NCBI GenBank assembly: GCA_945877805.1
Contig: CAMCSM010000004.1
Span: 1,582 to 65,581, forward strand
Direction: 5' to 3'
Length of the DNA: 64,000 nucleotides
DNA from: Methylacidiphilum caldifontis
GTDB lineage: Bacteria; Verrucomicrobiota; Verrucomicrobiia; Methylacidiphilales; CAMAQI01
Shown here piece by piece: positions 45,544 through 63,756 of the stretch. A program made the position numbers and the translations under genes. The notes beneath the pieces were generated by a model that had not been told where the DNA came from, did not search any database, and saw only the letters and a program-made list of their open reading frames with translations. Each line of letters begins with the position of its first letter. Within the stretch, counting starts at the first letter, position 1.

Positions 45544-45550
45544 GGCAGTC

Positions 45551-47505: not shown

Positions 47506-47515
47506 ATTCCGTTCT

Positions 47516-48586
47516 ATGACCGAAAAATACGACGTTATTGTGGTAGGGGCTGGCCCTGCGGGATCGATGGCGTCGTTGATTCTGGCGCGTGCAGGAAAAA
47601 AAGTGCTCCTTCTCGATAAAGCCAGTTTTCCTCGTCATAAAGTTTGCGGAGACTGCTTAAATCCGAGAATTTGGGCTCTCTGGAAGAAATACGGTTTAGT
47701 CGATTCCTTTAAAACCCTCCCTCAAACGGCCCTTGAGGGGCTGCGAATTGAGCACGATCAAGAGACGCTGCTTCGCCGTAATTTTGAGAGCCTCAAAGAA
47801 TCGTACATCTCGATCGATCGCGAGATCTTTGATGCTTGGCTCGTACAAGAGGCGATTAAATCGGGAGTCGTATTCATTCATGAGACCCGTGTTCAGACCG
47901 TTCACTTCTCCGGAAAAGTCGAGACCTCAGCCGGAGATTTTCAAGGGGATTGGATTTTAGGGGCTGATGGACGTAATTCAGTGGTCTCCCGTAATGCAGG
48001 ATTGATGGCTCCCCTTCAAAACTGCTGTCGTGTTGGATGGCAAGCCCATCTGGAACTTGAAAATTTAGATTCCGATCTTCATCTCCGATTTTTTAGTGAG
48101 GGCTATAGTGGGTTGAGTCGGATTCATGATCAAAAAGCAAATCTTTGGATGGTTCTCGATTCCAAGGTCTCTGGAATTCCTCAAAAAATTGCGAACCGCT
48201 ACTTTCCGAATCTTCCGGCTCTTGTTTGGCATAGTATCACCCCTGTTACTCGAAAGCCCTCAGTCTTGGGGAAGGGAAAGATCTGGTTGATTGGTGATGC
48301 GGCACGGGTTGTCGAACCGTTTACGGGAGAGGGGGTTTACTTCGCTCTGCTCAGTGCTGAATTGGCGGTTAAATCGATTTTAAATGTAAAGCGAGCCGAA
48401 GAGGTCTCTGGGGCTCTTTTGAACTACCAGAGAGAGCACGAGCTCCTCTGTCACTCCCAAATTCGCCCGGGGTTCATCCTTCGCTGGCTTCTCCGAAGCC
48501 CCGAAAGAGCCTATCGTTGGATCCCATTGCTTCGCTATTTTCCAGGGCCCGTCAGTCGAATCATCAATCGACTCATTGGAATTTAA
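47516..48586 (+). CDS. FAD-dependent oxidoreductase (geranylgeranyl-reductase-like family)
   Basis: YDVIVVGAGPAGSMASLILARAGKKVLLLDK dinucleotide-binding motif, HKVCGDCL, and a GDAARVVEPFTGEG C-terminal FAD motif. Confidence 0.8.
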   Translation: MTEKYDVIVVGAGPAGSMASLILARAGKKVLLLDKASFPRHKVCGDCLNPRIWALWKKYGLVDSFKTLPQTALEGLRIEHDQETLLRRNFESLKESYISIDREIFDAWLVQEAIKSGVVFIHETRVQTVHFSGKVETSAGDFQGDWILGADGRNSVVSRNAGLMAPLQNCCRVGWQAHLELENLDSDLHLRFFSEGYSGLSRIHDQKANLWMVLDSKVSGIPQKIANRYFPNLPALVWHSITPVTRKPSVLGKGKIWLIGDAARVVEPFTGEGVYFALLSAELAVKSILNVKRAEEVSGALLNYQREHELLCHSQIRPGFILRWLLRSPERAYRWIPLLRYFPGPVSRIINRLIGI

Positions 48587-48732
48587 TCACTTATTCTCGC
48601 TCCTCTCGGAAGCCGGGATAGCTGAATAGCTTGATAGCGAGTAAGCCGGATAGCTTAAATCCATTTAAAATGCAGGGGAAATTCTAATCCGCAGATGACG
48701 CAGATTTTCCTGCATTCCTTAAAGAAAAATGT

Positions 48733-48831
48733 CTTTTCCTTTGTGACTTCGTGTCTTCGTGTGAGACGGGTATTCAATGTCTTCAATCAGTGTAAATTAG
48801 CGAAAATTAGCGGTTCAAATTCTTTGCCTTT
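48733..48831 (+). repeat. Module B, 99 bp
   Basis: cttttcctttgtgacttcgtgtcttcgtgtgagacgggtattcaatgtcttcaatcagtgtaaattagcgaaaattagcggttcaaattctttgccttt. It is 92/99 identical to 54450-54548. The first half is shared with 37808-37857. Confidence 0.88.
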
Positions 48832-48838
48832 TTCTCTT

Positions 48839-50122
48839 TTAGAATAGCGAATTCATGAAATTAAAGAGGGGATTTCGAATGCTATTCCAAACATTGTGGG
48901 CATAAGGGAGGATCGCAATCGCAATCCCTGTCATCAGAACATTCGCCAGAGCCACGGGAAGAAAGACCTTCCAGCCGATATTCATCAATTGATCGTAACG
49001 AAAACGGGGAACCGTCCAACGAATCCAGATAAAGAAGAAAAGGAAGGCAAAAAGTTTCGCAAGAAAGACTCCCACTTGAACCGGGATGAACCACCACGGA
49101 TGATTCTGACCAGCGAACCAATCGACCAAGAGGCTAAACCAAGCGGGGGTTTCGAGTTGACAAAAGCTTAAGAAATTTTGAATAAATCCAAGCGGAAGAC
49201 TCCATCCTCCGAAGAAAAGGGTGACCATCACTCCCGAGGTGACGATCATCGCTGCATACTCCCCAAGGAAGAATAAGGCAAATTTCATCGAGGAGTATTC
49301 GGTATGATAACCCCCAATCAGCTCCGTTTCGCTCTCAGGAAGATCAAAGGGGGCGCGATTCGTTTCGGCAAAGGAGGAGATCAAAAAGATCACGAAGGAG
49401 AGAAGCATGAAGGGGAGAAGAAAGAAACTATCGAAGCACCAATTCGCAGACATGAACGGGAAAACGATCCATCCATGCAGAATCTGCTGCGTAATGATTT
49501 GGGAGAAATTTAAGGTCCCGAGAACCATGAAAAGAGGAATAATGGAGAGCCCCATCGAGATTTCGTAGGAGATCATTTGCGCACTAGAGCGGATCCCTCC
49601 GAGGAACGGATACTTGGAGTTTGAGGACCATCCAGCTAAAACGATTCCGTAAACCGAGAGCGAGGCAAAGGCGAAAACGAAAAGGACACCGATATCGATA
49701 TCGGCAATCACCCCGGGGGAGGGGATCGTCAGATTCAAGAACGGAATATAAATATCCTGAATACTCGCGAAGGGAATTACCGCGAGGGTGATCAAAGCGG
49801 GGCAAACGGCAAGGGCCGGAGCAATCGTAAAGTAGAGTTTGTTGACGTGACCAGGAGTAAACTCCTCCTTGAAGATGAACTTGGCGCTATCACAAATCGG
49901 CTGAAGCAGTCCAAAAGGGCCGACCCGGTTCGGCCCGACTCGATCTTGGATGAGTGCGCTCACCCGTCTTTCCGCCATTACGGTATAAGAGACAATTCCC
50001 AGAACAACCCCGATGACGGCAGCGGTTTTGAGAATCGAACTCACGACGAAAATCGTCGGATCAAATTGAGCGAGTAAACCGATAAATGAGAAAAGGCCTA
50101 GGTCCATACAAGAGACATTCAA
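48839..50122 (-). CDS. nuoH: NADH-quinone oxidoreductase subunit H (ND1 homologue)
   Basis: AERRVSALIQDRVGPNRVGPFGLLQPICDSAKFIFKEEF and ETNRAPFDLPESETELIGGYHTEYS are NuoH signatures. TTG start at 50122 (AAGGGGG upstream), or ATG at 50107. Confidence 0.88.
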   Translation of the reverse strand: MNVSCMDLGLFSFIGLLAQFDPTIFVVSSILKTAAVIGVVLGIVSYTVMAERRVSALIQDRVGPNRVGPFGLLQPICDSAKFIFKEEFTPGHVNKLYFTIAPALAVCPALITLAVIPFASIQDIYIPFLNLTIPSPGVIADIDIGVLFVFAFASLSVYGIVLAGWSSNSKYPFLGGIRSSAQMISYEISMGLSIIPLFMVLGTLNFSQIITQQILHGWIVFPFMSANWCFDSFFLLPFMLLSFVIFLISSFAETNRAPFDLPESETELIGGYHTEYSSMKFALFFLGEYAAMIVTSGVMVTLFFGGWSLPLGFIQNFLSFCQLETPAWFSLLVDWFAGQNHPWWFIPVQVGVFLAKLFAFLFFFIWIRWTVPRFRYDQLMNIGWKVFLPVALANVLMTGIAIAILPYAHNVWNSIRNPLFNFMNSLF

Positions 50123-50200
50123 AAGAACCCCCTTGAAAAAACAACATAAAAACTAAAAAAGATTTACGAGGAGGATTCCTTTGCTAGACCCTCCTTTGTT

Positions 50201-50617
50201 GTGAAGTCTCGTTCTTTTCATTTTGGAGTGGTGATTAGTGAATATCACCGTGAATATACCGAACCGATGTTAGATTCGGTTCAGGAGGTCCTCTCTGCCT
50301 ACGATCTCACTGTGGTTTGGGTTCCCGGGGCTTTCGAAATCCCTTTACAAGTCCAGCGACTAGCCGAATCCGGGCATTACGACGCCGTGATCGCCTTAGG
50401 ATTGATCTGGCAAGGGGCAACGCTTCATAATACCGAGATTTTAAGAGCCGTGACCGATTCGTTGATGCGGATTGGCTTAGATTGTGATCTTCCCGTGATT
50501 CACGAGGTGCTTTCCGTGAAAACAGCCAAACAGGCTCGTGAGCGGTGCCAAGGAAAAATGAATCGAGGCCGCGAAGCGGCTTTAGCCGCCCTTTCAGTGG
50601 CCCGATTGAAAGGGTAA
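50201..50617 (+). CDS. ribH: 6,7-dimethyl-8-ribityllumazine synthase
   Basis: FGVVISEYHREYTEPML, VPGAFEIPL and ALGLIWQGAT.HNTEI fit RibH. GTG start. Confidence 0.8.
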   Translation: MKSRSFHFGVVISEYHREYTEPMLDSVQEVLSAYDLTVVWVPGAFEIPLQVQRLAESGHYDAVIALGLIWQGATLHNTEILRAVTDSLMRIGLDCDLPVIHEVLSVKTAKQARERCQGKMNRGREAALAALSVARLKG

Positions 50618-51545: not shown

Positions 51546-51579
51546 AAATACCTTCTCTTGACGAATCTAGTTTTAAATT

Positions 51580-51641
51580 TGCTCTCGGAGTGACTCGAAC
51601 ACTCGACCCACCCCGAAAGAATTCGGGGTTGCTCTTTCCTA
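51580..51641 (-). pseudogene. tRNA-Arg-derived 3' fragment (part of the D arm, an altered anticodon arm, T arm, acceptor 3' strand)
   Basis: 51581-51610 is identical (30/30) to 51914-51943 of the intact tRNA. Similarity resumes at agagcaac on the far side of a replaced anticodon arm (accccgaattctttcggggt, 20 nt instead of 17). There is no 5' acceptor strand or D-stem 5' half. Confidence 0.75.
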
Positions 51642-51943
51642 ATCTTTCTTTTCCAGATAATATTGAATCAACTTGGGATTCTTTTTTGCTTTTAAATATC
51701 GCTCTAAATCTCTCGCTTCTTTAAGGTTTTTACATTCACGAGTAACAACCACAGACAATGGCCGTCCAATCCGTTTACTACTTGGACACGATCCATGTTG
51801 GTGATGGTCGAGACGACGTTGAAAATTATCAGTCGATCCTAAATAGTGTCGCCCTGTTGTCCCTTGAAGTAAATAAACGCAAATCACCTCAATCCTTTTC
51901 TTTTTTAAAATCTGCTCTCGGAGTGACTCGAACACTCGACCCA
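51581..51943 (-). mobile_element. Candidate GIY-YIG cassette bounded by 30-bp direct repeats derived from the tRNA 3' end
   Basis: The direct repeats gctctcggagtgactcgaacactcgaccca at 51581-51610 and 51914-51943 bracket the GIY-YIG ORF. No integrase or transposase is present. Confidence 0.4.
51639..51887 (-). CDS. GIY-YIG nuclease-superfamily small protein
   Basis: (V)ICVYLLQGTTGRHYLGSTDNFQRRLDHHQHG... is the GIY-YIG/URI core pattern. I chose the GTG at 51887 because AAGGA lies 5 nt upstream. The track's longer frame (to 51944) would begin inside the tRNA. Confidence 0.75.
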   Translation of the reverse strand: MICVYLLQGTTGRHYLGSTDNFQRRLDHHQHGSCPSSKRIGRPLSVVVTRECKNLKEARDLERYLKAKKNPKLIQYYLEKKD

Positions 51944-51986
51944 CGGATTAGAAATCCGTTGCTCTATCCAGCTGAGCTACGAGAGC
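51913..51986 (-). tRNA. tRNA-Arg (anticodon UCU)
   Basis: Manual cloverleaf: GCTCTCG-TA-GCTC-AGCTGGATA-GAGC-A-ACGGA-TTTCTAA-TCCGT-GGGTC-GAGTG-TTCGAGT-CACTC-CGAGAGC-A. All four stems are fully paired and CCA is not encoded. Confidence 0.93.
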
Positions 51987-52161
51987 TAATGATTGAATTT
52001 ACAATTAACAGATCCAAACCAGCAACGAAAGAAAAAAGAAAAGAGGGTTCAGCACAAACGTTGGTCAATTGAGGACTAAATAAAGCGGAGTTATTTACTT
52101 TTGAAAAATCTCTCGTGAAAGACCACTTTGACGAATCTCTTTTCCTGAAAAAACTCCCAAC

Positions 52162-52386
52162 TTAGGCATGAACTGCCTCAAAACGAGTGATAAAGACTTC
52201 TCCGTGGAGTCTTTGTTTAATCTCCTCCTTCGAGGCACATTCCAAAAAGAGTTCGACCGCTTCTTTTAAATTAGCGAGCGATTCCTCGACGCTTTCCCCC
52301 TGACTCGCCACGTCGAGCTCAGGACAAAGGGAGACATAGCCGTTATCCTCTTTTTCCAAAATGGCAGTGAATTGTGATTTGCTCAT
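52162..52386 (-). CDS. HicB-like antitoxin-fold protein (UPF0150-type)
   Basis: MSKSQFTAILEKEDNGYVSLCPELDVASQGESVEESLANLKEAVELFLE matches the HicB N-terminal domain pattern. No DNA-binding C-terminal domain and no adjacent hicA. Confidence 0.65.
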   Translation of the reverse strand: MSKSQFTAILEKEDNGYVSLCPELDVASQGESVEESLANLKEAVELFLECASKEEIKQRLHGEVFITRFEAVHA

Positions 52387-52559
52387 ATCTGATTTTGATC
52401 CTTCAAGTAGCATAAGTCACCTCTAAAAATATTCAATTGATTTATGATCCTCCTGCGGACTAATCATTCGAACTCATTAGCTCTCAATTAAGTAAGGTGC
52501 GCAAGTTGCTTTTGTCGGTCTCGCCATTGTCCACGGGGCATGGTGGAATTATTCAACGA

Positions 52560-52580
52560 TATTGTCATTTTATGACAATA
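52560..52580. promoter_or_regulatory. 21-bp AT-rich palindrome (9-3-9), candidate operator upstream of sufT
   Basis: tattgtcat-ttt-atgacaata, 46 bp upstream of the sufT ATG. Confidence 0.45.
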
Positions 52581-52625
52581 ATTCAGATCTTGTCAGAGCG
52601 ATGAGGTTGAATTAGGATCGGGGGT

Positions 52626-53171
52626 ATGTCCTCTCAAGATCTTCCTATTACTTTAAAGCGTGATGTCTCTGCGATTCAAATCCCTGCGGGGGTCGAAAAA
52701 CTTTTACTTTCCGGATCCCAAGTCCAAATGATGCAATCGTTGGGGGGGACCTTCACGGTCGTTGCCTTAGGGGAGTCGGGGCTCTATCGAATTCGAGGGG
52801 AGGATGCGGAGGCGCTCGGATTGGCAAAGCCAACGGAGGGGACTCCTTCGATTGAAGGTGAGGTCAATGAGGATCAGATTTGGGAGAAATTGAAGGGCTG
52901 TTACGATCCTGAGATTCCGGTCAATATTGTCGATTTAGGTCTGATTTATAGCTTGGAGATTCAACCGGTAGAGCAAGGGAAAAGAGTGGAGGTCAAGATG
53001 ACCTTAACCGCTCAAGGGTGCGGGATGGGGCCCTCGATTGCCGCTGATGCTCGCGAGAAGATTTTGACCCTTCCGGGGGTTGTTGAGGCTGAGGTGGAGG
53101 TCGTTTGGCAACCGGTTTGGAATCCGGCGATGATCTCTGCAGAGGGAAAAAAACGTCTCGGAATGGCGTAA
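52626..53171 (+). CDS. sufT: SufT-like Fe-S assembly protein (long form, DUF59/MIP18 C-terminal domain)
   Basis: The C-terminal half, CYDPEIPVNIVDLGLIY...VKMTLTAQGCGMGP...PGV..AEVEVVWQPVWNP, is the DUF59 pattern. The 181-aa length with an N-terminal extension fits long-form SufT. Confidence 0.65.
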   Translation: MSSQDLPITLKRDVSAIQIPAGVEKLLLSGSQVQMMQSLGGTFTVVALGESGLYRIRGEDAEALGLAKPTEGTPSIEGEVNEDQIWEKLKGCYDPEIPVNIVDLGLIYSLEIQPVEQGKRVEVKMTLTAQGCGMGPSIAADAREKILTLPGVVEAEVEVVWQPVWNPAMISAEGKKRLGMA

Positions 53172-53177
53172 CTTTTT

Positions 53178-54104
53178 ATGTCGAATCCGCTCGAACATTC
53201 GAAAGAGTGGGCGGCATGGGCCCCTGTTTCGGAGGGATGGAAGCCACTGCAAGGGCGATTTTATTCTGAGGGCTGGAGTATTGAATCTCACCAGTTTCAA
53301 AGTGCTCGCGAAATTAATTGGGCGGAGAGCTTTCATGGGAATGGCTTAGAGATCTGTTTTAATCTTTCCGGAATCGGGCGATTAAATGCGGGGAAGAGTG
53401 CCTTGGAGTTTTTACCGGGAACGGAGGGCTTTTATCGGGTCGATCCCGCCTCGATGCGAGGATCGAGAGTGGCTCAAGAGAATCATCATTTTGTAACGGT
53501 CGAGTTGACCTCAAATTATCTGAAAAAACATTTAGAACAGGAGATCGATCATCTTTATCCCGTCGTCCAAAAGGTCATGGAGGATAAAAAATCGACAGGG
53601 GAGCTTGGAATGACCCGTTCTTTGACGATGCCCCATCGTCTCCTCGCCTCCTCCTTGATGAATCCGCCGGTTCAAACCTCGGCACAGGGATTGTGGTACC
53701 AAGGAAAAGTTTTGGAGATTATCGCTGAGATTTTATATCTTCCCGTTCAAGAGGAGCTTTTTTGTGCCAGGCATAAGCGGGTCGCTCGGGATCGAGTGGA
53801 GGAGATGAAACGGTTATTAGAGTTGGATTTAGAGAATCCCCTTTCGTTAGAAGATTTAGGAAAAAAGATCGGCTGCAGTCCCTTTTATTTAAGCCGAACT
53901 TTTTCTCAGGAGACCGGAACGACGATGCCTCAGTATTTACGCTCTTTACGAATGGAAAAGGCGGCCGAATTCTTGCGAAGCGGAAAGTATAATGTCACCG
54001 AGGCGGCCCTTGCGGTGGGCTATAATAGTTTGAGTCATTTCAGTAAGGTTTTCAGTGAGGTTTTTGGAAAATGTCCCTGTGCCTTTCCTCTTAAACCGAA
54101 ATGA
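53178..54104 (+). CDS. AraC-family transcriptional regulator
   Basis: C-terminal double HTH: LSLEDLGKKIGCSPFYLSRTFSQETG...YLRSLRMEKAAEFL...NVTEAALAVGYNSLSHFSKVFSEVFG. Confidence 0.85.
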   Translation: MSNPLEHSKEWAAWAPVSEGWKPLQGRFYSEGWSIESHQFQSAREINWAESFHGNGLEICFNLSGIGRLNAGKSALEFLPGTEGFYRVDPASMRGSRVAQENHHFVTVELTSNYLKKHLEQEIDHLYPVVQKVMEDKKSTGELGMTRSLTMPHRLLASSLMNPPVQTSAQGLWYQGKVLEIIAEILYLPVQEELFCARHKRVARDRVEEMKRLLELDLENPLSLEDLGKKIGCSPFYLSRTFSQETGTTMPQYLRSLRMEKAAEFLRSGKYNVTEAALAVGYNSLSHFSKVFSEVFGKCPCAFPLKPK

Positions 54105-54202
54105 CTTTTAATCGCCAAAAGGATCGTGAAAACGATTAACCACTAACAGCGGAGCTGCTTGTAATTTTAGCTTGGAGGGTGGAAGAGGAGCAACATAAGT
54201 AC

Positions 54203-54282
54203 AACCCCGACAAAGAGTACTCCGACACTAAACTCGGAGCAGGCGGGGCAGGAATTCGCCAAGAATTTTAAACCACTTATCC
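54203..54282 (+). repeat. Copy of the 1467-1533 module carrying a 24-bp nested hairpin insertion
   Basis: aaccccgacaaagagtac[tccgacactaaactcggagcaggc]ggggcaggaattcgccaaga...tttaaaccacttat. The bracketed 24 bp are absent from the 1467-1533 copy. Confidence 0.8.
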
Positions 54283-54406
54283 TCACTTATTTTCACTAAT
54301 CCAAATCCTCAAAACAGTGAGAATTTCGATCTTGATCGAAATCAAAGCCATGAAACAAACGAATCTCGCAAACGCGTTTGTGAAGATCGTTTTTCTCATG
54401 ATTTTG

Positions 54407-54445
54407 GATTCGTTCCGGCAGCCGGACGAATCTTTACTGTTTTTA
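54407..54445 (+). terminator. Terminator-like hairpin with a T tract, about 300 bp from the nearest stop codon
   Basis: gattcgt(t)ccgg-ca-gccggacgaatc followed by tttactgttttta. Confidence 0.5.
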
Positions 54446-54449
54446 ATGC

Positions 54450-54548
54450 CTTTTCCTTTGTGACTTCGTGTCTTGGTGTGAGACGGGTATTTAATGTCTT
54501 CAATCAGTGTAAATTAGCGTCGATTAGCGGTTTCAATTCTTTGCCTTT
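54450..54548 (+). repeat. Module B, 99 bp
   Basis: 92/99 identical to 48733-48831. Confidence 0.88.
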
Positions 54549-54639
54549 AATCTGGCGTTTAATCCCTGCCTTTCCTCTGCGTTCCTCATCGCCCTCGGCG
54601 GTTTAAAAATGCCTTTAATGCCTTTTTCCCATCAGCCTG

Positions 54640-54790
54640 CTCGGATTGAGGCTAATTGACCGATGGACTGATTGGCTGTTGGGTTTAAACCGATCAGCCA
54701 AAAGTCACTTTGCGACTGTACAGCCCATTAGTCCATTAGCCTCTCTTCCTCTATCCGTGTTCATTCGTGTCCATCCGTGGTTAATTCGGT
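54640..54790 (+). repeat. Element R1, copy a (MITE-like palindromic core gaggctaat...attagcctc plus ccgtg-word tail)
   Basis: 54640-54748 is 109/109 identical to 56190-56298. The ends are imperfect inverted repeats: gaggctaattgaccgatggactgattggctgt against acagcccattagtccattagcctc. Confidence 0.9.
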
Positions 54791-54850
54791 ATTTTTCCTT
54801 TTTTCAATTGGCAGTTGTCAAAAGAATGTCTAATAACAACCCTTTCGCTT

Positions 54851-56068
54851 ATGGCCTTAATTGTACAAAAATATGGGGGAACCTCTGTTGGGAATCCAGA
54901 GAGGATCAAGAACGTTGCATCACGAGTCGCCGAATGGCGCGCTCGAGGGGATCAAGTCGTCGTCGTTGTTTCGGCGATGTCCGGAGTGACGGATGGATTG
55001 ATCAAATTGGCAAAAGAGGTATCCAGTGAACCGGCCGAACGGGAGATGGATATGCTTCTTTCGACCGGTGAGCAAACGACGATCGCGTTGACCGCCATGG
55101 CCCTGCAACAGATCGGAATACCGGCCGCTTCCCTGACGGGGGCTCAAGCAGGGATCGTGACCGATGGGGTCCACACACGGGCTCGGATCTCCAATATCAC
55201 TCCGAAACGAGTTCATGATCTTTTAAATGCCGGAAATGTCGTGATTGTCGCCGGATTTCAAGGACATACCGCAGAGGGGGCGATTACCACCTTAGGGCGA
55301 GGAGGATCAGATCTCACCGCCATCGCACTTGCGGCCGCGCTCAAGGCCGATCTTTGTCAGATTTATACCGATGTGGATGGCGTTTATACCGCCGATCCTC
55401 GACTTGTCCCCCACGCCTCGAAAATCGAGGAGATCTCGTATGATGAAATGCTGGAGTTAGCCAGTTTAGGGGCGAAGGTCATGCAGGCTCGCTCGGTGGA
55501 ATTTGCGAAGAAATTTAATGTCGTGTTTGAGGTAAGATCGAGTTTTAATAAAAATGCAGGAACGATTGTGAGAGAGGAGACAAAATCTATGGAAGAAGTC
55601 GTCGTACGAGGAGTGAGCTTGGAAAAGAATCAAGCGAAGGTAACGATTAATGGAGTTCCTGATCAACCGGGAGTCGCTGCCAAGATTTTTACTTTAATTG
55701 CCCAAGCCAATTTAAATATCGATATGATCGTTCAAAACGTTTCGATTCACGGAACCACCGATATTACCTTTACCTTAAACAAAGATGATTTAGCGAAGGC
55801 CCGCAAAACACTCGATCCTGTCGTCAAAGAGGTTAAAGCAAAGGAATTGATTGCACAAGAAGGGGTCTCCAAGCTTTCCGTTGTCGGAATTGGAATGCGT
55901 TCCCATAGCGGAGTCGCCTCGACCCTCTTCACCGCCTTAGCGAATGCGAAGATCAATGTTCAGATGATCTCGACCAGCGAAATTAAAATCTCGGTGATCA
56001 TCGACGAGGCCTCCGGCCCAGAGGCAACGAAGATCGTCCACGATGCCTTTCAGCTCGGAAAGAGTTAA
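54851..56068 (+). CDS. lysC: Aspartate kinase
   Basis: MALIVQKYGGTSVG, VVVVSAMSGVTD, RGGSD.TA..LAAAL and two C-terminal ACT domains. I prefer the ATG at 54851 because the track start at 54815 adds 12 atypical residues. Confidence 0.9.
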   Translation: MALIVQKYGGTSVGNPERIKNVASRVAEWRARGDQVVVVVSAMSGVTDGLIKLAKEVSSEPAEREMDMLLSTGEQTTIALTAMALQQIGIPAASLTGAQAGIVTDGVHTRARISNITPKRVHDLLNAGNVVIVAGFQGHTAEGAITTLGRGGSDLTAIALAAALKADLCQIYTDVDGVYTADPRLVPHASKIEEISYDEMLELASLGAKVMQARSVEFAKKFNVVFEVRSSFNKNAGTIVREETKSMEEVVVRGVSLEKNQAKVTINGVPDQPGVAAKIFTLIAQANLNIDMIVQNVSIHGTTDITFTLNKDDLAKARKTLDPVVKEVKAKELIAQEGVSKLSVVGIGMRSHSGVASTLFTALANAKINVQMISTSEIKISVIIDEASGPEATKIVHDAFQLGKS

Positions 56069-56160
56069 CTCAGATTCGTCATGAGAGATCGTTTCTCATG
56101 CAATACATTGAGTTAAACTTAAAACTCCTTAAACCACTTATCTACGCTCATTTTAGGAAG

Positions 56161-56186
56161 GCCGAATAGCCGAATAGCCGAATAGC
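56161..56186 (+). repeat. Tandem octamer (gccgaata) x3
   Basis: gccgaatagccgaatagccgaatagc, directly abutting R1 copy b. Related ATAGC words occur at 48612-48655, 44718-44742 and 31654-31682. Confidence 0.9.
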
Positions 56187-56189
56187 TCA

Positions 56190-56325
56190 CTCGGATTGAG
56201 GCTAATTGACCGATGGACTGATTGGCTGTTGGGTTTAAACCGATCAGCCAAAAGTCACTTTGCGACTGTACAGCCCATTAGTCCATTAGCCTCTCTTCTC
56301 CGCCTCTTCCTCTATCCGTGTTTAT
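56190..56325 (+). repeat. Element R1, copy b
   Basis: Identical to copy a over 109 bp, then carries an 11-bp insertion (tccgcctcttc) that the third copy shares with one mismatch (cccgcctcttc). Confidence 0.9.
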
Positions 56326-56365
56326 CCCATTTCTTGCATTGGGAATGGATATTCCTCACAAACGA

Positions 56366-56500
56366 TATCACCAAAATGGTGATAAAAAATGGAGGGGCAC
56401 AGGCTCTGTGCCTCATCGGACGGGGAAGGCAGTGGGCCACTGCCCCTCCAGTTCTAATGACGAATCTGGGTTTATCAGTGTCCATCCGTGGTTCCAACTG
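56366..56500. repeat. Second copy of the M2-bearing element (inverted relative to 27510-27657)
   Basis: M2 at 56391-56449. The flanking hairpin atcacc-aaaa-tggtgat corresponds to tcaccc-aaa-gggtga in copy 1. The flank cgaatctgggttta corresponds to cgaatctaggttta. It ends in atccgtggttccaactgcttttt, the reverse complement of 37525-37547. Confidence 0.8.
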
Positions 56501-56602
56501 CTTTTTCTGTTTTGAACGGGATCGACCTCGAATAGTCGAGTAAAAAGGGGAAATTTTCACTTTTTGACCCCCTTTTACAAAGTTTTGAAGAAAGTTCTCT
56601 AT

Positions 56603-56620
56603 TTGTCATGAAACTGTAAC
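56603..56620 (+). promoter_or_regulatory. Pho-box-like direct repeat
   Basis: TTGTCAT-GAAA-CTGTAAC against the E. coli-type consensus CTGTCAT-AWAW-CTGTCAY. It lies 84 bp upstream of the porin ATG, at the head of the porin-pstSCAB-phoU cluster. Confidence 0.5.
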
Positions 56621-56703
56621 AATCGGCTGCTTAGTTCTTGGTGCTTTCAAAGGGCTTTCTGATGAGAAGGGGATGAAGGCATATAAAAACAACAAGGAGA
56701 AAT

Positions 56704-58086
56704 ATGAAAAAAACATTTAAAAAGATGACCGCGTTGGCGGTAGCTTTTGCTGCGATGACCTTCGCGGCAGTCGCTCAAGATAGCGGGGCGCTCGTTGAAG
56801 CCCTCGTGAAGAAGGGAATTCTCTCGGATCAAGAAGCAGAAGAAATTCGCGCCGATTTGACCAAAGAATTCGGACAAACCCCTGCTGGAAAATTAAATTT
56901 GAACAGCGCGGTCACTCAATTGAAATTGTATGGCGATACTCGTGTTCGTTATACAACGGAAAGTTCCCGTACTAAAAACGGACATGAGCTGTCAACCCAA
57001 AATCGGGAGCAACTTCGTTACCGCGTCCGTTTAGGGGCAGAGTACTCCTTCGTTGATAACTTCAAAGCGGGAGTCGCATTCACAACAGGAACAGCAAATG
57101 ACTCTGGTAATTCCACTTTTGGAAACGGAACAGACGGAGCATTCGGTAAATCAAGTGCAAACGATGCGATCGTTGTTGATCTCGCTTACCTCCAATATGA
57201 CCCAGTCATGTTTGATTCAAGCGTGAAGACATCGCTTTTCGTTGGTCGTCATAAAAAGACCTTTGAACTCGACTGGATCAACTTTGATGGCGATATCAAT
57301 GTTGAAGGAGCTGGCGAAAAAGTCTCTTGGGAGTTGAACAAGAATTTCAACTTTGGATATAACGGAGGTCAGTACCTTTATGAAGATACCACCAATCAAG
57401 GGACGAACAACACCAATACAACTCGTCACGATACTTGGCTTTTGGTTAACCAAGTGGTTGCCGAATACAAGGTCAATAAAGATTTGAGCTTCAAAGTCTC
57501 TCCGATGATGATGGATATGGTGAACCAAACCAGCCCTGATTCTGGTGCTACTGGTGCGAGCACGACAATCGCTGGATATGGAAGCATTCTCTTTGTTCCT
57601 TTGGAAGCAAAGTTCAAACTTTGGAATACACAATTCCGTCCTTACTACATCTACAGTCACAACTTTGAGTCTGAAGAGGCTCTATTAGCAGCGCAATCGC
57701 TTCGCCGAGACAACGTCACTGTTGATCGTAATAACGCCGATCAAAGCGACAGTCACACCTTCGGATTCGAAGCCGGTGAGTTGAAGAAGAAAAAAGATTG
57801 GCAAGTGGGTCTCTATTATATCCACCGCGAAGCTTTTGCTTCTAATAACGACCTCGTCGATTCCGATTGGGCGCTTCAACGTTCGAACATGAAGGGCTAT
57901 GCTGTGAAGGCTGGTTATATGCTCACGGATAACGTTTCATTGAATGCGGCTTATCTGACCGGTGATACGCTTCAAGATCATATCTTCCCGAATAATGTTG
58001 TTGGCGGTGCAGCAAGCAACACAAATCAAATTGCAGATCGAAGCAGAGTTGAAGTATTTCAACTTGACGTGAATTGGAAATTCTAA
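56704..58086 (+). CDS. Outer-membrane porin, probably phosphate-selective (OprO/P-like) by context
   Basis: Signal peptide MKKTFKKMTALAVAFAAMTFAAVAQ, alternating beta-strand-like sequence, and a C-terminal ...LDVNWKF (terminal Phe). It lies directly upstream of pstS. Confidence 0.6.
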   Translation: MKKTFKKMTALAVAFAAMTFAAVAQDSGALVEALVKKGILSDQEAEEIRADLTKEFGQTPAGKLNLNSAVTQLKLYGDTRVRYTTESSRTKNGHELSTQNREQLRYRVRLGAEYSFVDNFKAGVAFTTGTANDSGNSTFGNGTDGAFGKSSANDAIVVDLAYLQYDPVMFDSSVKTSLFVGRHKKTFELDWINFDGDINVEGAGEKVSWELNKNFNFGYNGGQYLYEDTTNQGTNNTNTTRHDTWLLVNQVVAEYKVNKDLSFKVSPMMMDMVNQTSPDSGATGASTTIAGYGSILFVPLEAKFKLWNTQFRPYYIYSHNFESEEALLAAQSLRRDNVTVDRNNADQSDSHTFGFEAGELKKKKDWQVGLYYIHREAFASNNDLVDSDWALQRSNMKGYAVKAGYMLTDNVSLNAAYLTGDTLQDHIFPNNVVGGAASNTNQIADRSRVEVFQLDVNWKF

Positions 58087-58117
58087 TCAACGTTTGATTT
58101 AAAAAATCAATAAAAAA

Positions 58118-58145
58118 CCCCCGGTGAGCGGAAACTCACCGGGGG
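58118..58145. terminator. GC-rich 11-bp hairpin after the porin gene
   Basis: cccccggtgag-cggaaa-ctcaccggggg, flanked by A-runs on both sides. There is no U tract on the plus strand, so its terminator function is uncertain. Confidence 0.5.
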
Positions 58146-58237
58146 TCTAAAAAAACAAATGAATTGCTTTTGAACGAACAAAAACGATTCTGCTGTTTCA
58201 GTAAACAAAAATCAATCAAGGAATTGTTACATTTTTT

Positions 58238-59047
58238 ATGAAAAAACTTTTTACACTCTCATTGGCTGCTTTGATGACCCTTTCGTTCATCCAAGCTGAA
58301 AAATTGGTCATCAAAGGTTCTGACACTCTTGGAGCTAAACTCGTTCCTCAGCTCGCAGAGGCTTTCAAGGCTGCGAACCCTGGAACAACGTTCGAAATCG
58401 CTGCTGAAGGTTCAACCACCGGTATCGCTGCGATCACCGACGGAACTGCTGATATCGGGATGTCCTCCCGCCGTGCAAAGCCGACTGAAATGTCGGCTGC
58501 GACTGCAAAGGGCGTCAGCATGAAGCCGACGATCGTTTGTTATGATGGAATCGGAATTGTGGTCAATGCTGCTAGTCCTCTTAAAGGACTCACAAAGTCA
58601 CAAGTTGAAAAGATCTTCACTGGTGATGTAACGGATTGGAGTGCTGTTGGTGCTCCTGCTGGTGCAATCTCGATCTATACTCGTAATACCTCCTCTGGTA
58701 CTTATTCCGATTTCAAGGAATTAGCGATGAAGAAACGGGATTATGCAGGAAGTTCACAAAAGATGGCCGGTAACGAACAGATCGTTGCTGAAGTCTCCAA
58801 GAACAAAAACGGAATCGGTTATGTTGGCATGGCCTACATCAAAGAGGCAGGAATTAAAGTCCTTCCTGTCGATGGTGCGGTTCCTTCCAAAGCCTCTGTT
58901 TTAGGGAAATCCTATCCTTATGCTCGTCCAACTTTCTTCTACACCAACGGTGATGCCGCTGGTTTGGCTGCTAAGTTCATCGAATTCACGCACTCTGCTC
59001 CTGGGATGAAGATTACGGAGCAAGTCGGATTTGTTCCTGTCAAATAA
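58238..59047 (+). CDS. pstS: Phosphate ABC transporter substrate-binding protein
   Basis: Signal peptide, IKGSDTLG, GSTTGIAAITDGTADIGMSSR and YPYARPTFFY (PstS/PBP-like 2 family). Confidence 0.88.
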   Translation: MKKLFTLSLAALMTLSFIQAEKLVIKGSDTLGAKLVPQLAEAFKAANPGTTFEIAAEGSTTGIAAITDGTADIGMSSRRAKPTEMSAATAKGVSMKPTIVCYDGIGIVVNAASPLKGLTKSQVEKIFTGDVTDWSAVGAPAGAISIYTRNTSSGTYSDFKELAMKKRDYAGSSQKMAGNEQIVAEVSKNKNGIGYVGMAYIKEAGIKVLPVDGAVPSKASVLGKSYPYARPTFFYTNGDAAGLAAKFIEFTHSAPGMKITEQVGFVPVK

Positions 59048-59164
59048 TTTTCATTTTCGGGTGGTTTGTTTGAATTGATGGAGAACTCACTTCTCTTTTG
59101 ATGAGTGCAAGCCGCCTGAGAGAAAATGAAAATGCTTTAGAAGATCGTTATTTCTCCTGTTGTA

Positions 59165-59200
59165 AAAAAACCGGGCCGAGTCCAACCCTCGGCCGGTTTT
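59165..59200. terminator. Bidirectional-type rho-independent terminator after pstS
   Basis: aaaaaaa-ccgggccgag-tccaacc-ctcggccgg-tttt. Confidence 0.7.
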
Positions 59201-59442
59201 AGATCTTAAATAAAGTTCGGAGCAATCTATTAGAGAAGATAAAACAATATCTCTTAGGAAAGCAGGAAATCAGGAAAAGAGTCCCGATAAAAATAGGGAT
59301 ACGAAGACTTGGAAATTAAAATTGTTTTTTTCATGCTTTCCTGCATTCCTTAGAGATTTTGGCGTTTAAGTATTGTTATCTGTAAAAAATGGGGTTACTT
59401 CGGAGGGGGATTCGAGGAGTATAAACTCAAAGAGAAACTATT

Positions 59443-61047
59443 ATGCCGATTGAACAACCTACAGCTAAGAAGATGCCGGTGAATAAGATGCCGATAGCCG
59501 AAGCTTTGCGTACGGTGCAACGGCCTACGTTTTTGGGCATCACCTTTGATGATGCGATGCATTATTTTTTTCGCGGAAATGCAACGGTCTCGATCCTTGT
59601 TTTGTTTTTGATCGTTATCTTTTTATTTAAAGAGGGGGGCGGTTTTTTTAGTCAGAATGTTCAGAATTTGGAGATCTACCGTAAGGCCGGGCTTGAGTAT
59701 GTCGATATTGTTCGAACCCGAGTCGATAATCATCGGACCTTAGGACGTTTTTTAGGGGAACTACGCACGAAACAACTTAATCTTCTCCATGGCGATGAAA
59801 GTGCCCTAGCCGGTTATGATGCGGCCGTTGAGCGTTTTTCAGTAACGATTGATGAGTATCAAGGATTTGTCTCTGAGTATACTGAGGTCGCTACGGGGAT
59901 TAAGGAGAAGTTTAAAATTGGTTTGGACATGGAGGTGGCAAAGCAAAACTTCCAAAGAGAGGGAAAATTTGAGGAATCGGGGAAGATTGTAATCCCTGAA
60001 ATTGATTTTGCTACAGAAACTCAGATTTTTCGGGATTCGGTCCCACAAATCAAAGTTATCGACGAAAAGTTTCATACGGAAGTGAATGCCTCGCTGGAAT
60101 CTTTTCCTGCGATGCCCTCTGTCGAGTTACAGCCGCAACTGGAGAAGTTTAAAGAATTAGTAAAGCTTCATCAAGAGGATGTCCGGACGATGGAGAAGAG
60201 TTTAACGGAGTGGAATTGGCAAAAACCGATTCCTTGGTACGAAACATTCACCTCCTTTATTTTTGGACGGAATTGGTTAACGGCCAGTTTTTGGCAAGAT
60301 TGGTACGGGATCATTCCGTTATTTGTCGGCTCTTTGATTATTGCGATTTTGTCAATCGCGATAGCCGTTCCCTTCGCCATTGGTGCGGCGATCTATGTGA
60401 ATCAAGTCGCCACTCGACATGAACAAAATTTGATCAAGCCGTATATTGAGTTCGTTTCCGCGGTACCTTCGGTTGTTTGGGGTTTCTTTGGGATTGCAGT
60501 GGTTGGTCAGCTGATCCGTACCGTCTCAGAACTTGGTGTCGTCTCTTGGGTGCCTTTTTTTCCGATTGCAGAACGTTTGAATATTGCGACCGCTTCCTGT
60601 CTTTTGGCGATCATGGCGATTCCGACGATCTTTAGTCTTGCAGAGGATGCGATTCAAAATGTGCCAAATGCTTATACGGAGTCCTCCCTGGCTTTAGGAG
60701 CGACAAAATTTCAGACAATCTGGATTATTATGATTCCCTCCGCACTCTCTGGAATTGTTTCTGCGATCATTCTTGGGCTGGGACGAGTGATTGGTGAGAC
60801 GATGGTCGTGTTGCTTTGTTCGGGAGGTCGAATTCAAATTCCTGATTTTTCTAAGGGACTTGGAATTTTCTTCCAACCCGTGCATACGATGACCGGAATT
60901 ATTGCTCAAGAGATGGGGGAAGTGGCTAATGGAGCGATTCACTATCGGGCCTTGTTTATGGTCGGAATTGTCCTCTTTTTTATCTCACTCCTTTTGAACT
61001 ATGCGGCACAACAGGTCGTGAAACGCTATAAAATTTCGATCGGATAA
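59443..61047 (+). CDS. pstC: Phosphate ABC transporter permease PstC (long form with a large periplasmic loop)
   Basis: The C-terminal ~250 aa carry the PstC core (EDAIQNVPNAYTESSLALGATKFQTIWIIMIPSALSGI). The N-terminus has a TM helix and a loop of about 230 aa. Confidence 0.85.
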   Translation: MPIEQPTAKKMPVNKMPIAEALRTVQRPTFLGITFDDAMHYFFRGNATVSILVLFLIVIFLFKEGGGFFSQNVQNLEIYRKAGLEYVDIVRTRVDNHRTLGRFLGELRTKQLNLLHGDESALAGYDAAVERFSVTIDEYQGFVSEYTEVATGIKEKFKIGLDMEVAKQNFQREGKFEESGKIVIPEIDFATETQIFRDSVPQIKVIDEKFHTEVNASLESFPAMPSVELQPQLEKFKELVKLHQEDVRTMEKSLTEWNWQKPIPWYETFTSFIFGRNWLTASFWQDWYGIIPLFVGSLIIAILSIAIAVPFAIGAAIYVNQVATRHEQNLIKPYIEFVSAVPSVVWGFFGIAVVGQLIRTVSELGVVSWVPFFPIAERLNIATASCLLAIMAIPTIFSLAEDAIQNVPNAYTESSLALGATKFQTIWIIMIPSALSGIVSAIILGLGRVIGETMVVLLCSGGRIQIPDFSKGLGIFFQPVHTMTGIIAQEMGEVANGAIHYRALFMVGIVLFFISLLLNYAAQQVVKRYKISIG

Positions 61048-61058
61048 AGGAGTTTTTT

Positions 61059-62090
61059 ATGGAACATGCATTTTCAAATCGACCGACGAAGGCAAAAACG
61101 ACGCAGAATATCGCTTTCTGGATTATGAGATCGATGACCTACACGATTGTGATTCTCGCAACGCTGATTTTTGGGACGATTTTTATAAAAGGGGGGTCGA
61201 CTGTTTTTCAAACTTCATTTCCCTTTGTGAATACCACCTTTCTATTTAGCAAACCGGAAACCTTGCACGTTGTGACGAGTGATGGAAATAAATTGCAGAT
61301 GGGGGACAAAGAATGGCGAGCTTATAGCGAAAAAAATCCAGAGGCTGTCATTGAGGATCATAAGACCTATGTTTATTCAGCAGGCGGTATTTTTCCCTGT
61401 ATTGTCGGAACAGTTCTTCTTGTTTTAGGGTCGATGACGATTGCCTTAACTTTAGGGGTCATGAGTGCCATTTATTTAAGTGAGTACAGCAAACATGGAT
61501 TGTTTATTGAATGGGTTCGAATCTCGATTGCGAACCTTGCAGGGGTTCCTTCGATTGTTTTTGGTCTTTTCGGCTATGGAATCTTTGTGATCTTTTTCGG
61601 GTGGAATGTTTCCCTTTTATCGGGATGGTTTACCTTAGCCTTCATGGTCTTACCGGTGATTATCACCTCGAGTGAAGAGGCGATGCGAGCGGTTCCTAAG
61701 GGGTTTCGCGAAGGCTCCTTAGCTCTTGGGGCGACGAAGTGGCAGACGATCACCGGCAATGTCCTTCCTTATGCTATTCCTGGAATTTTGACCTCCTCTG
61801 TATTAAGTATTTCACGGGTTGCGGGGGAAACGGCACCGATCATGTTTACAGCTGCCTATGTGGTGCGCGATGAGCTCCCTTGGGAGGTGAGTAAGCTTTC
61901 CGATTTCTTTTTACAGGGAGTTCAGGCTCTTCCTTATCATATTTATGTGGTGAGTTCAAAAATTCCTCAGAACGAGTATACGGCTCGGGTTCAATGGGGA
62001 GGGGCTTTCGTTTTTCTAGTGGTCGTGTTAGCGATTGCGATGACCTCTGTCGTGATGCGGTCAAAAATGCGGCAAAAATACCGGTGGTAA
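61059..62090 (+). CDS. pstA: Phosphate ABC transporter permease PstA
   Basis: EEAMRAVPKGFREGSLALGATKWQTITGNVLPYAIPGILT (the EAA loop) and GETAPIMFTA. Confidence 0.88.
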   Translation: MEHAFSNRPTKAKTTQNIAFWIMRSMTYTIVILATLIFGTIFIKGGSTVFQTSFPFVNTTFLFSKPETLHVVTSDGNKLQMGDKEWRAYSEKNPEAVIEDHKTYVYSAGGIFPCIVGTVLLVLGSMTIALTLGVMSAIYLSEYSKHGLFIEWVRISIANLAGVPSIVFGLFGYGIFVIFFGWNVSLLSGWFTLAFMVLPVIITSSEEAMRAVPKGFREGSLALGATKWQTITGNVLPYAIPGILTSSVLSISRVAGETAPIMFTAAYVVRDELPWEVSKLSDFFLQGVQALPYHIYVVSSKIPQNEYTARVQWGGAFVFLVVVLAIAMTSVVMRSKMRQKYRW

Positions 62091-62093
62091 AAA

Positions 62094-62960
62094 ATGAGTA
62101 CAACACTCGAAAAATCTGCTAATCAAAAGAAGAAGGAGGAGGCCATGAGTATCAACTCGTTAATTAACCCCTCGATGGAGTCTATGATGACCGAAACAAA
62201 ACCGAAACCGATCATTGAGATCGATAATGTCGATTTTTACTATGGTGCCACCAAGGCGTTGCATGGCATTACCTTGAATATTGAACCGAAAAAAGTGACC
62301 GCTTTTATCGGGCCCTCGGGTTGCGGTAAATCGACATTGCTTCGTTGTATTAACCGGATGAATGACCTCGTCGATATTGCCCGAGTCGGGGCGGGTCAAT
62401 TTCGGATCAGCGGGGTCGATATTTATCATCCAAGCGTCGATGTGATTGAGCTTCGCAAACGAGTGGGAATGGTTTTTCAGAAGTCGAATCCTTTTCCAAA
62501 ATCGATCTACGAAAACATTGTTTACGGTCTGCGAATTCAAGGGATCAATGATAAAAAACGGCTCGATGAAGTGGTGGAGAAGAGTCTTCGCGGAGCAGCA
62601 CTTTGGGATGAGGTGAAAGATCGGCTTCATGATTCCGCCTTAGGGTTATCGGGAGGTCAGATGCAGCGGATTTGTATCGCTCGGGCGATTGCGGTCGATC
62701 CAGAGATCATTTTGATGGATGAGCCCTGTTCGGCATTGGATCCAATTGCGACCGCGAAAGTCGAGGAGTTGATCCACGAATTGAAAACGAAGTTTACGAT
62801 CGTGATCGTGACTCATAATATGCAACAAGCGGGACGCTGTTCCGATACGACCGCCTTTTTCTATCTTGGAAAGTTGATCGAAATTGGAAATACGGAGAAA
62901 ATCTTTACGAATCCAACGCAACAACAGACCGAGGATTACATCACCGGTCGATTTGGCTAA
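62094..62960 (+). CDS. pstB: Phosphate ABC transporter ATP-binding protein
   Basis: GPSGCGKST Walker [15 protein letters not shown] signature motif, [12 protein letters not shown] Walker B, and the PstB-typical tail [10 protein letters not shown]. Confidence 0.92.
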
Positions 62961-62990
62961 TTTTTAAAAGCGCAAAGCCGCTTTTAAAAA
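62961..62990. terminator. Perfect 12-bp AT-rich hairpin between pstB and phoU
   Basis: tttttaaaagcg-caaagc-cgcttttaaaaa, starting 1 nt after the pstB stop. It may act as an attenuator. Confidence 0.5.
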
Positions 62991-63062
62991 TGATTTAAGA
63001 GAGATGATCGTTGTCTTTTAAATGTGGGGAGAGAGTTTTTAAAATGAAGAAGAGGGAGTTCT

Positions 63063-63737: not shown

Positions 63738-63756
63738 TGATTCATTCAAAACCGTT

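Follow-up and report, generated by a model that had tools for sequence, protein, structure and literature searches.

Bacterial MITEs, such as Correia/NEMIS of Neisseria, Nezha of cyanobacteria and RUP of Streptococcus pneumoniae, are non-coding elements of approximately 100 to 150 bp with terminal inverted repeats that form a long hairpin, and are scattered between genes at unrelated loci, with their presence varying among close relatives. The STRR heptamer arrays of cyanobacteria and the mosaic elements of Nostoc consist of intergenic tandem words of 7 to 10 nt, which occur in nested or adjacent families and turn over rapidly between relatives. The BOX elements of pneumococci are likewise modular, incorporating a variable number of internal units (modules of 45–59 bp), can adopt a stable secondary structure and are located near genes. 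The REP, REPIN and BIME sequences of E. coli and Pseudomonas, which are mobilised by RAYT transposases, combine extragenic palindromes with short motifs in mosaic blocks, and the REP/REPIN palindromes carry a GTAG or CGTC tag at one end (PMC3733652). The 64-kb window analysed here (the whole stretch of DNA) derives from an uncultured freshwater verrucomicrobial lineage, the nearest named relatives of which are labelled Methylacidiphilales, and includes several copies of a palindromic repeat, R1. Literature searches turned up no account of repeats like these from the group, and R1 is most reasonably regarded as a new MITE/REP-like repeat family.

Two blocks in the window (54640-54748 and 56190-56298) are identical at 109/109 positions, with a start-to-start spacing of 1550 bp, and the sole real gene between them is lysC (54851-56068, + strand), which encodes an aspartate kinase of 405 aa with AA_kinase and ACT domains, the homologues of which are named aspartate kinase. 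The similarity extends to 54764 and 56325, respectively, once a single 11-bp gap is allowed. R1 copy a (54640-54752, + strand; core 54648-54743; nhmmer score of 132 bits) precedes the lysC ATG by approximately 100 nt and contains a single 11-nt unit of the CCTCTTCC type, while copy b (56190-56326, + strand; core 56198-56293), situated 121 nt past the lysC stop codon, has a second 11-nt unit in the form of an additional TCCGCCTCTTC. The corresponding sequence in copy c is CCCGCCTCTTC. This third copy is inverted (63927-64000, - strand), lies approximately 190 nt downstream of phoU and is truncated by the end of the window, but is present as a whole in the independent metagenome contig L002 (L002:12136-12281, 97.9 % match to 56326-56181), which stops just beyond it. 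The 23-mer arm of the repeat was found three times, against 0.00 expected by chance, and all the sequence-level claims made for the repeat in the original prediction were confirmed on checking.

The R1 core comprises 96 nt (GAGGCTAAT...ATTAGCCTC), with the ends GGCTAAT and ATTAGCC, and reaches about 126–137 nt when the tails are included. An outer stem and two short inner hairpins can be distinguished, one of these hairpins containing the perfect palindrome GGTTTAAACC, and the arms that enclose the hairpins are arrays of degenerate 8-nt units (CCNNNTAG, complement CTANNNGG). The imperfect terminal inverted repeats that had been proposed correspond to 23-nt arms (GAGGCTAATTGACCGATGGACTG and CAGCCCATTAGTCCATTAGCCTC) which are 83 % complementary when ungapped, or match at 22/24 positions (by eye) when an 8-nt gap, equivalent to one octamer unit, is introduced. 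Folding into a long hairpin, as had also been anticipated, is predicted at -48 to -51 kcal/mol (z = -5.7 and -6.3 versus shuffled sequences). Arms and flanks show a significant 8-nt periodicity (lag-8 identity of 0.60; 0/2000 shuffles), and the number of units differs among copies, which vary by an 8-nt indel in the arm, three to four flanking octamers and one versus two 11-nt units. Two ORFs beginning within R1 (54646-55029 and 56196-56543) showed no Pfam match and were rejected as genes, leaving R1 a small element without coding capacity.

At least ten short repeat families, R1 among them, form mosaic intergenic regions here, and 15.8 % of the intergenic bases, compared with 0.8 % of the coding bases, have a repeat within the window. 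Octamer arrays, 11-nt units, ATCCGTG decamers and a second palindromic repeat, R2, adjoin R1 in a combination that differs for each copy. A perfect octamer array (GCCGAATA x3.2; 56161-56189, + strand; identified with TRF) abuts copy b and its 8-nt period carries on into the R1 arms, and arrays of this kind also adjoin copy c and the copy on contig L011. The ATCCGTG-type decamer module found downstream of copy a (54753-54782, + strand) also trails R1 in copy c, in copy b, where it is interrupted, and in the Phi MAG copy, and occurs without R1 at 45905, 45949, 37538 and 37645. R2 (56364-56476, + strand), with an outer stem of TGGAGGGG/CCCCTCCA around two GC hairpins, lies next to or within the tail of copy b, with a second R2 inverted at 27506-27613. 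A GTTTATC target-site duplication around the R2 in the copy b tail was considered and rejected, since AATCTRGGTTTA forms part of the R2 end in both R2 copies. Pieces of R1 were also found. A solo GAGGCTAAT (45632-45640, + strand) occupies the position orthologous to a full R1 in the sister-species MAG (L001:2392-2520), with the remainder of the element replaced in the window by approximately 260 bp of other repeat modules, while the fragment at 31650-31706 (- strand), in which GAGGCTAATGG is followed by an octamer array (CTTGATAG CCTGTTAG CCGAGTAG CCTGATAC), is made from R1-type units.

Five independent R1 copies could be distinguished, in four unrelated contexts and three lineages. Copies a and b lie to either side of lysC and copy c follows phoU; the copy of the sister-species MAG (L001) separates two hypothetical genes, and that of a JGI lake metagenome (L011:989-1100) immediately precedes a Bro-N gene. 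All five are intergenic and between operons, and the copies beside phoU, the hypothetical genes and the Bro-N gene show that R1 is not specific to lysC. A degenerate 23-nt pattern covering both arms recovered one locus among the genome contigs (L001) and none among the metagenome contigs, although this pattern is too strict for diverged copies and gives no copy number; the one sister genome searched gave a single exact arm match. The central 20-mer of R1 was found in one JGI contig among the metagenome contigs (L011) and had no match in viral contigs. No further copy was detected with an nhmmer R1 profile over 210 kb of collected sequence, and blastn of R1 against plasmid and phage collections gave no match. 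Across the three lineages, the genomes of which differ by approximately 7 %, the central hairpin region has remained nearly unchanged; this conservation could reflect function rather than youth.

Compared with the known systems, R1 has the form of a MITE, being a small, non-coding hairpin with inverted ends, found as multiple dispersed copies at several unrelated loci and variable in its presence among close relatives, so that the description as MITE-like given to it originally is fair as far as form is concerned. It differs from MITEs in that no target-site duplication is definable for single copies: directly outside the arms there is no duplication, and the flanks are common to the copies, with the homology fading as the ends grade into variable unit arrays. 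With no clean target-site duplication, strict membership of the MITE class is unproven. Furthermore, no cognate IS or transposase is known for R1, few copies have been found so far, and the 64-kb window encodes no transposase, RAYT or integrase. The two inverted arms around a spacer are reminiscent of REPINs, as are possible roles at mRNA 3' ends, and R1 is BIME-like in that its palindromes occur together with further short motifs whose arrangement varies. The 96-nt R1 cores, however, when read for the REP tag, contain neither GTAG/CTAC nor CGTC/GACG; their arms are 8-nt tandem units rather than the 20–40-bp self-palindromes of REPs, the window contains no gene for RAYT, the IS200/IS605-like Y1 transposase that REP/REPIN repeats flank, and the copy number appears much lower. 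Short tandem words, adjoining families and rapid turnover are shared with the cyanobacterial STRR arrays and Nostoc elements, from which R1 differs in phylum, unit length and sequence, and in that its arrays serve as the paired arms of a discrete palindrome. The modularity, variable unit number, potential for stable structure and proximity to genes also recall BOX, but there is no sequence similarity and the R1 units are only 8 and 11 nt. Integron attC core sites take the form RYYYAAC ... GTTRRRY, with the cassettes in one orientation and intI nearby. An attC site or cassette was rejected for R1, the ends of which lack the AAC/GTT triplet, with copy c inverted and no integrase in the window.

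At the orthologous lysC loci of the sister species (L003 and L012), which share 93.5–93.8 % nucleotide identity over lysC and 97 % amino acid identity in its product, both R1 copies are missing. Upstream of lysC, alignment with L003, and likewise L012, delimits a 253-bp block (54544-54797, + strand), consisting of a left module, R1 copy a and the decamer module, which is absent from the sister species. It is bordered by TTTGCCTTT and TTTTCCTTT, with TTTGTCTTT at the empty site in the sister. These borders form an imperfect 9-nt repeat, the only direct repeat seen, and enclose the composite block, and could equally reflect a microhomology-mediated deletion in the sister lineage, so that the change may have gone in either direction. 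Synteny with the sister species breaks 11 bp after the lysC stop codon and copy b consequently has no counterpart there. The presence of R1 thus differs at orthologous sites, being empty at the sister lysC and replaced at window position 45632. The more distant lysC loci (L004-L010) also lack R1, and those with 86–88 % amino acid identity have upstream spacers of 30–50 bp.

The window differs from the near-identical strain L002 at only 2 of 12,197 positions. At one of these (54707, + strand), the window has A, which is the base in copy b, while G is found in L002, in copy c, in the Phi MAG copy and in L011. The same position is the sole site separating copies a and b within L002, where the blocks match at only 108/109 positions as opposed to 109/109 in the window. 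By our own arithmetic, the coincidence of an L002 SNP with the site that distinguishes a from b has a chance expectation of approximately 1e-4. The A at 54707 is a gene-conversion footprint, whereby copy a was made identical to copy b. The suggestion that the direct repeats could support recombinational loss or amplification of lysC thus holds in part: recombination between the copies is supported indirectly, in that one of the two SNPs relative to L002 equalises a and b, but no lysC deletion or amplification variant was seen, with only one other contig carrying this lysC.

Taken together, R1 is probably a lineage-specific family of small, non-coding, palindromic interspersed repeats, the copies of which are gained, lost or replaced and kept near-identical by conversion, with its position on both sides of lysC being incidental. 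Copies would be gained, lost or replaced in intergenic DNA, and we infer that they spread through transposition in trans by some enzyme and/or recombination at microhomologies, and that they serve no host function. Slippage would alter the number of 8-nt and 11-nt units, and gene conversion would keep the copies within one genome nearly identical. The two copies would then sit on either side of lysC only by virtue of the long intergenic regions there, both of which accept repeats. Against this reading stand the lack of a clean target-site duplication around single copies, the lack of a transposase, RAYT or integrase gene in the 64-kb window, the conservation of the central hairpin and the clustering of the three copies of the window within 9.4 kb, with none in the other 54 kb, a mildly non-random distribution (p of approximately 0.06, by estimate).

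Several other explanations can be weighed against this family of interspersed repeats. The original prediction offered copies a and b as 5' and 3' RNA elements controlling lysC, for example as a riboswitch, attenuator or 3' stabiliser. The strong predicted fold, the placement of both copies on the lysC strand at about 100 nt before the start and 121 nt past the stop, and the lack of any other terminator-like site on the + strand after lysC are all consistent with this. Rfam searches, however, returned only a tRNA for the whole window at the gathering threshold and, at E values up to 5 for 54050-56750, only two noise matches, both outside R1, with no lysine riboswitch among them. A terminator and promoter scan gave nothing at R1, with none of the six terminator-like sites of the latter region located there, and the R1 stem is followed by CTCTTCCTCT without the U-run that follows the GC-rich hairpin of an intrinsic terminator. 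RNAalifold found 0/40 predicted R1 pairs changed on both sides, a count of low power as only four distinct sequences were available, and several outer-stem pairs are broken in the L011 copy. Furthermore, a lysC with 97 % amino acid identity does without both copies, the relatives at 86–88 % have upstream spacers of only 30–50 bp, and R1 also occurs beside unrelated genes and in inverted orientation. A promoter-like TTGGCA-17-TAATAA (by eye; not called by the consensus scan) lies downstream of the insertion point and, if real, would place copy a outside the lysC transcript. RNA control of lysC is thus very improbable, and a tie between R1 and the control of this gene is not supported, with nothing linking the two. 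A more general role, in which R1 is a domesticated REP/BIME-like RNA or DNA element acting as a 3' mRNA stabiliser, as a U-tract-independent barrier between operons or as an array bound by some nucleoid or regulatory protein that recognises the octamer units and the GGTTTAAACC palindrome, fits the intergenic location of all five copies between operons, the near-invariance of the central hairpin in three lineages despite the genome difference, the regular 8-nt arrays of the arms and the existence of such roles for E. coli REPs (PMC3733652). It is nevertheless rather unlikely, given the lack of compensatory changes and of a U-run after the hairpin, the variable presence of R1 at orthologous sites of close relatives and its apparently low copy number, while the conservation can be explained by youth together with gene conversion.

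The inverted copies b and c may alternatively delimit a translocated block of 7.7 kb (porin, pstSCAB and phoU), in the manner of composite transposon ends or recombination breakpoints, with the copies flanking lysC being by-products. They bracket porin to phoU exactly, and where sister synteny ends after lysC, signal peptidase I is found rather than porin-pst. The block is a conserved unit, which a more distant relative carries at an unrelated locus, and no close orthologue of the porin was found for the sister MAG in a protein search. The missing porin could, however, be due to MAG incompleteness, the pst block of the relative has no R1, and the contigs with a candidate signal peptidase I orthologue of the window lineage (P0241, 93–94 % identity to that of the sister) are only 1.2 kb in length. 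An 89 % signal peptidase I orthologue in another species (L013 and L014) has no R1 upstream. Gene order around lysC is, moreover, poorly conserved throughout the clade, so that rearrangement needs no R1, and such a translocation is improbable, more so than a domesticated element. About as unlikely as the latter is that R1 and its companion modules constitute an active lineage-specific mobile system of word arrays, moved by an as yet unrecognised enzyme with specificity for the 8-nt arrays. Such a system would remodel intergenic DNA and bring about rearrangements on the scale of operons; the porin-pstSCAB-phoU block placed between the inverted b and c right after lysC would then serve as an example. 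It is least likely of all that the repeats, or the identity of a and b, are an artefact of assembly or polishing. Reads mis-mapped during polishing could have homogenised the copies and created the A at 54707, the sole L002 difference inside copy a, but L002, from an independent short-read metagenome assembly made with k=141, which exceeds the repeat length, contains all three copies in the same order and with the same flanks across 12.2 kb, and diverged R1 copies are present in two other lineages.

The interspersed repeat family described here reveals no new mode of lysC regulation. Rather, it adds an uncharacterised repeat family with octamer-array arms to a phylum from which few descriptions of interspersed repeats are available, and the 109-bp direct repeats 1.5 kb apart provide a small, well-defined case of concerted evolution in a natural population. 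Repeats of the R1 type create long, fast-changing intergenic regions that may be mistaken for regulatory RNAs. R1 and its companion repeats also break short-read assemblies of this lineage, with contigs L002, L003 and L012 all ending at or beside such repeats.

The aspartate kinase gene lysC (true start at ATG 54851, MALIVQKYGGTSVG..., stop at 56068) is enclosed, as originally noted, by two direct copies of the palindromic repeat R1, with positions 54640-54748 (copy a) and 56190-56298 (copy b) identical over 109 nt and the similarity extending to 54764 and 56325, respectively, once one 11-nt gap is allowed. The inverted third copy (copy c) starts at 63927 and is truncated by the window end. 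It is completed in an independent metagenome contig of a near-identical strain (L002; ENA ERZ27280245), which corresponds to window positions 51804-64000 with two mismatches, continues 85 nt past the window and ends just after copy c. A 23-nt R1 arm occurs three times, compared to 0.00 occurrences expected by chance, and the sequence-level observation is correct. One of the two differences from L002 (2/12,197 positions) falls within copy a, at 54707, where a G is present in L002, copy c, the copy in the sister-species MAG and the copy in a JGI lake-metagenome contig (L011), and an A in the window. This A is the copy b state in both strains, and the site is the sole position separating copies a and b in L002. 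The chance of a random substitution at that site, in either copy, giving the base of the other copy is ~5e-5 per SNP by our arithmetic. The simplest reading is b to a gene conversion in the window lineage, with homogenisation during assembly polishing as the alternative source of the A. This footprint thus indicates that copies a and b interact by homologous recombination, the mechanistic premise of the proposed recombinational deletion or amplification of lysC; no such variant was seen in the single other contig with this lysC.

R1 has a conserved core of 96 nt (GAGGCTAAT...ATTAGCCTC), predicted to fold into an outer stem around two hairpins, the first (TTGGCTG...CAGCCAA) holding a perfect palindrome (GGTTTAAACC) at its tip and the second consisting of GTCGC-TTT-GCGAC. 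On both strands, the folding energy lies between -48 and -51 kcal/mol (z = -5.7 and -6.3). The arms are arrays of degenerate 8-nt units (CTAATTGA, CCGATGGA and CTGATTGG on the left; CCCATTAG and TCCATTAG on the right), and this period extends into the left flanks of copy b (CCGAATAG, three times) and of the L011 copy (CCTAATAG, CCTAGTAG, CCTGTAAG and CCTGATCG), with a lag-8 self-identity of 0.43-0.60 that was matched by 0-2 of 2000 shuffles. The 8-bp indel previously noted between the arms is therefore one such unit. The 11-bp insertion reported in copy b corresponds to an CCTCTTCC-type unit of 11 nt being present twice; besides copy b, this second unit is found in copy c, in the R1 of the sister MAG and in L011, and its absence from copy a is the exception. 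An ATCCGTG-type decamer module, which is also found alone elsewhere, usually occurs on the right side of R1. Given this module and the unit arrays in the flank, the ends of R1 are gradual rather than sharp.

The degenerate arm pattern was found at one locus (L001) among 185,579 species-representative genomes, the genome in question being a MAG from a lake that bears the name 'Methylacidiphilum sp. Phi' in its deposit (GCA_945860255.1). The orthologue of L001 in the window is 44670-50495 (~92.5 % nucleotide identity), and L001 includes a complete R1 (93 % identity) with a hypothetical gene on each side. At the orthologous site in the window solely GAGGCTAAT is left (45632-45640), and the next ~260 bp are made up of further repeat modules, some of them placed elsewhere in L001. 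A 20-mer from the R1 centre matched one JGI lake-metagenome contig, L011, where the R1 copy (88-92 % identical) is located immediately upstream of a Bro-N gene. A profile search of 210 kb of window and related sequence revealed no further copies; an R1-unit fragment, GAGGCTAATGG joined to an octamer array, occurs on the minus strand at 31650-31706. No similar DNA was matched in plasmid, phage and viral collections. The signal peptidase I of the MAG shares just 44-47 % identity with its counterparts in named Methylacidiphilum species, and the LysC proteins closest to that of the MAG come from lake-metagenome Verrucomicrobia; the name given to the MAG on deposition probably misassigns it taxonomically.

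The sister-species lysC (on L003, from the same MAG, and L012) shares 97 % amino acid and 93.5-93.8 % nucleotide identity with that of the window, and its upstream region can be aligned apart from four large indels. Among them, the sister species lacks a 253-bp block (54544-54797) in which R1 copy a stands between a left module and a decamer module; this block is flanked by TTTGCCTTT and TTTTCCTTT in the window, with a single TTTGTCTTT at that spot in the sister. The block may have been inserted, with 9 nt imperfectly duplicated, or lost from the sister through a deletion at microhomologies. Another indel, at 54279-54429 in the same spacer, seems to have arisen by deletion in the sister, since L011 has the window's arrangement and, with such a deletion nearby, the 253-bp change may have occurred in either direction. 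Downstream, homology to the sister ends 11 nt past the stop codon, where signal peptidase I follows lysC in the sister and a porin-pstSCAB-phoU block in the window. No R1 was found at lysC in relatives with 86-88 % identical LysC, where the upstream spacers are 30-50 bp and the neighbours differ. As the sister and distant lysC loci are without R1, it is no conserved companion of lysC. In one such relative (L004; LysC 86 % identical), an inverted pair of a 31-nt module (11238-11268 and 11900-11930), also present at window 54452-54482, encloses a PDDEXK_3 gene directly downstream of lysC.

The suggestion that R1 forms 5' and 3' RNA elements controlling lysC also found no support. The single Rfam match at threshold across the window was a tRNA, and two noise matches at E up to 5 in 54050-56750 were both outside R1. 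A terminator scan made no call at R1, where the stem is followed by CTCTTCC with no T-run. Compensatory changes were observed in 0/40 predicted R1 pairs, which is weak negative evidence with four distinct sequences, and several outer-stem pairs are broken in the L011 copy. The lysC-centred interpretations are not supported; a generic function of the REP type, for instance in protecting the 3' ends of mRNAs or as unit arrays bound by a protein, is conceivable.

The window is ordinary chromosome, encoding two-component systems, leuA-like, argH, nuoH, ribH, nusB, lysC and pst genes, while gene order points to a dcw cell-division cluster with MraZ, its domain-scanned member, at the head. No transposase, RAYT or integrase was found in the 64 kb. 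Bases repeated elsewhere within the window make up 15.8 % of intergenic versus 0.8 % of coding sequence, in at least ten families, several of them palindromic like R1. The R2 family (56364-56476 and 27506-27613; opposite orientations, 81-86 % identical) shares the R1 architecture, with an outer stem (TGGAGGGG/CCCCTCCA) around two GC-rich hairpins (GGCACAG..CTGTGCC and GGCAGTG..CACTGCC); its sole Rfam match was noise (mir-939, E = 0.43). A 104-nt family occurs at 54445-54548, 48728-48831 and 37803-37906 (92 % between two copies). Upstream of lysC, the stretch 54430-54548 shares 98.6-100 % identity with the sister species, compared to 93.6 % for the lysC coding region, which suggests homogenisation or constraint of this copy. 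The "MITE-like" label fits R1 in form, and R1 is a candidate MITE for which no target-site duplication or partner transposase was found. The GTAG/CGTC REP families were ruled out, their tag being missing from the cores. R1 is best classed as a new family within a known type of element, the small palindromic interspersed repeats, and as one of a broader module set building mosaic, fast-changing intergenic regions, which may be likened to BIMEs and to cyanobacterial mosaic repeats. Of modest interest are the octamer-array arms, the conversion footprint at 54707 and, if true, a candidate relocation of the pst block, which the inverted copies b and c possibly bound.

Between two convergent genes, an intergenic region of 480 bp (37377-37860) consists almost entirely of modules paired in inverted orientation (37377-37429/37720-37772, 37479-37509/37798-37828 and 37538-37565/37645-37672), jointly forming a large composite near-palindrome, with its modules also occurring at 1495, 8463, 45733, 48728, 51455 and 54445. 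The ORF at 7114-7980 retains DUF4143, with the AAA_14 ATPase domain of its homologue in another species (L013/L014) absent, and may be a truncated gene. The ORF at 37879-39030 (minus strand) encodes a 383-aa protein that matched no Pfam family and has three tandem 237-nt (79-aa) repeats at 38174-38514 (~70 % identity); a neighbouring gene has a prepilin-type N-terminal methylation motif. Finally, the 3' end of tRNA-Arg(TCT) (51913-51986, minus strand) and its downstream bases are duplicated 333 bp away (51566-51611; 46 nt, 91 %). A small GIY-YIG nuclease ORF (51639-51944, minus strand; Pfam E = 7e-11) lies between the tRNA and the duplicate, and 51566-51986 has the appearance of a miniature element with a GIY-YIG gene that inserted at the 3' end of the tRNA.
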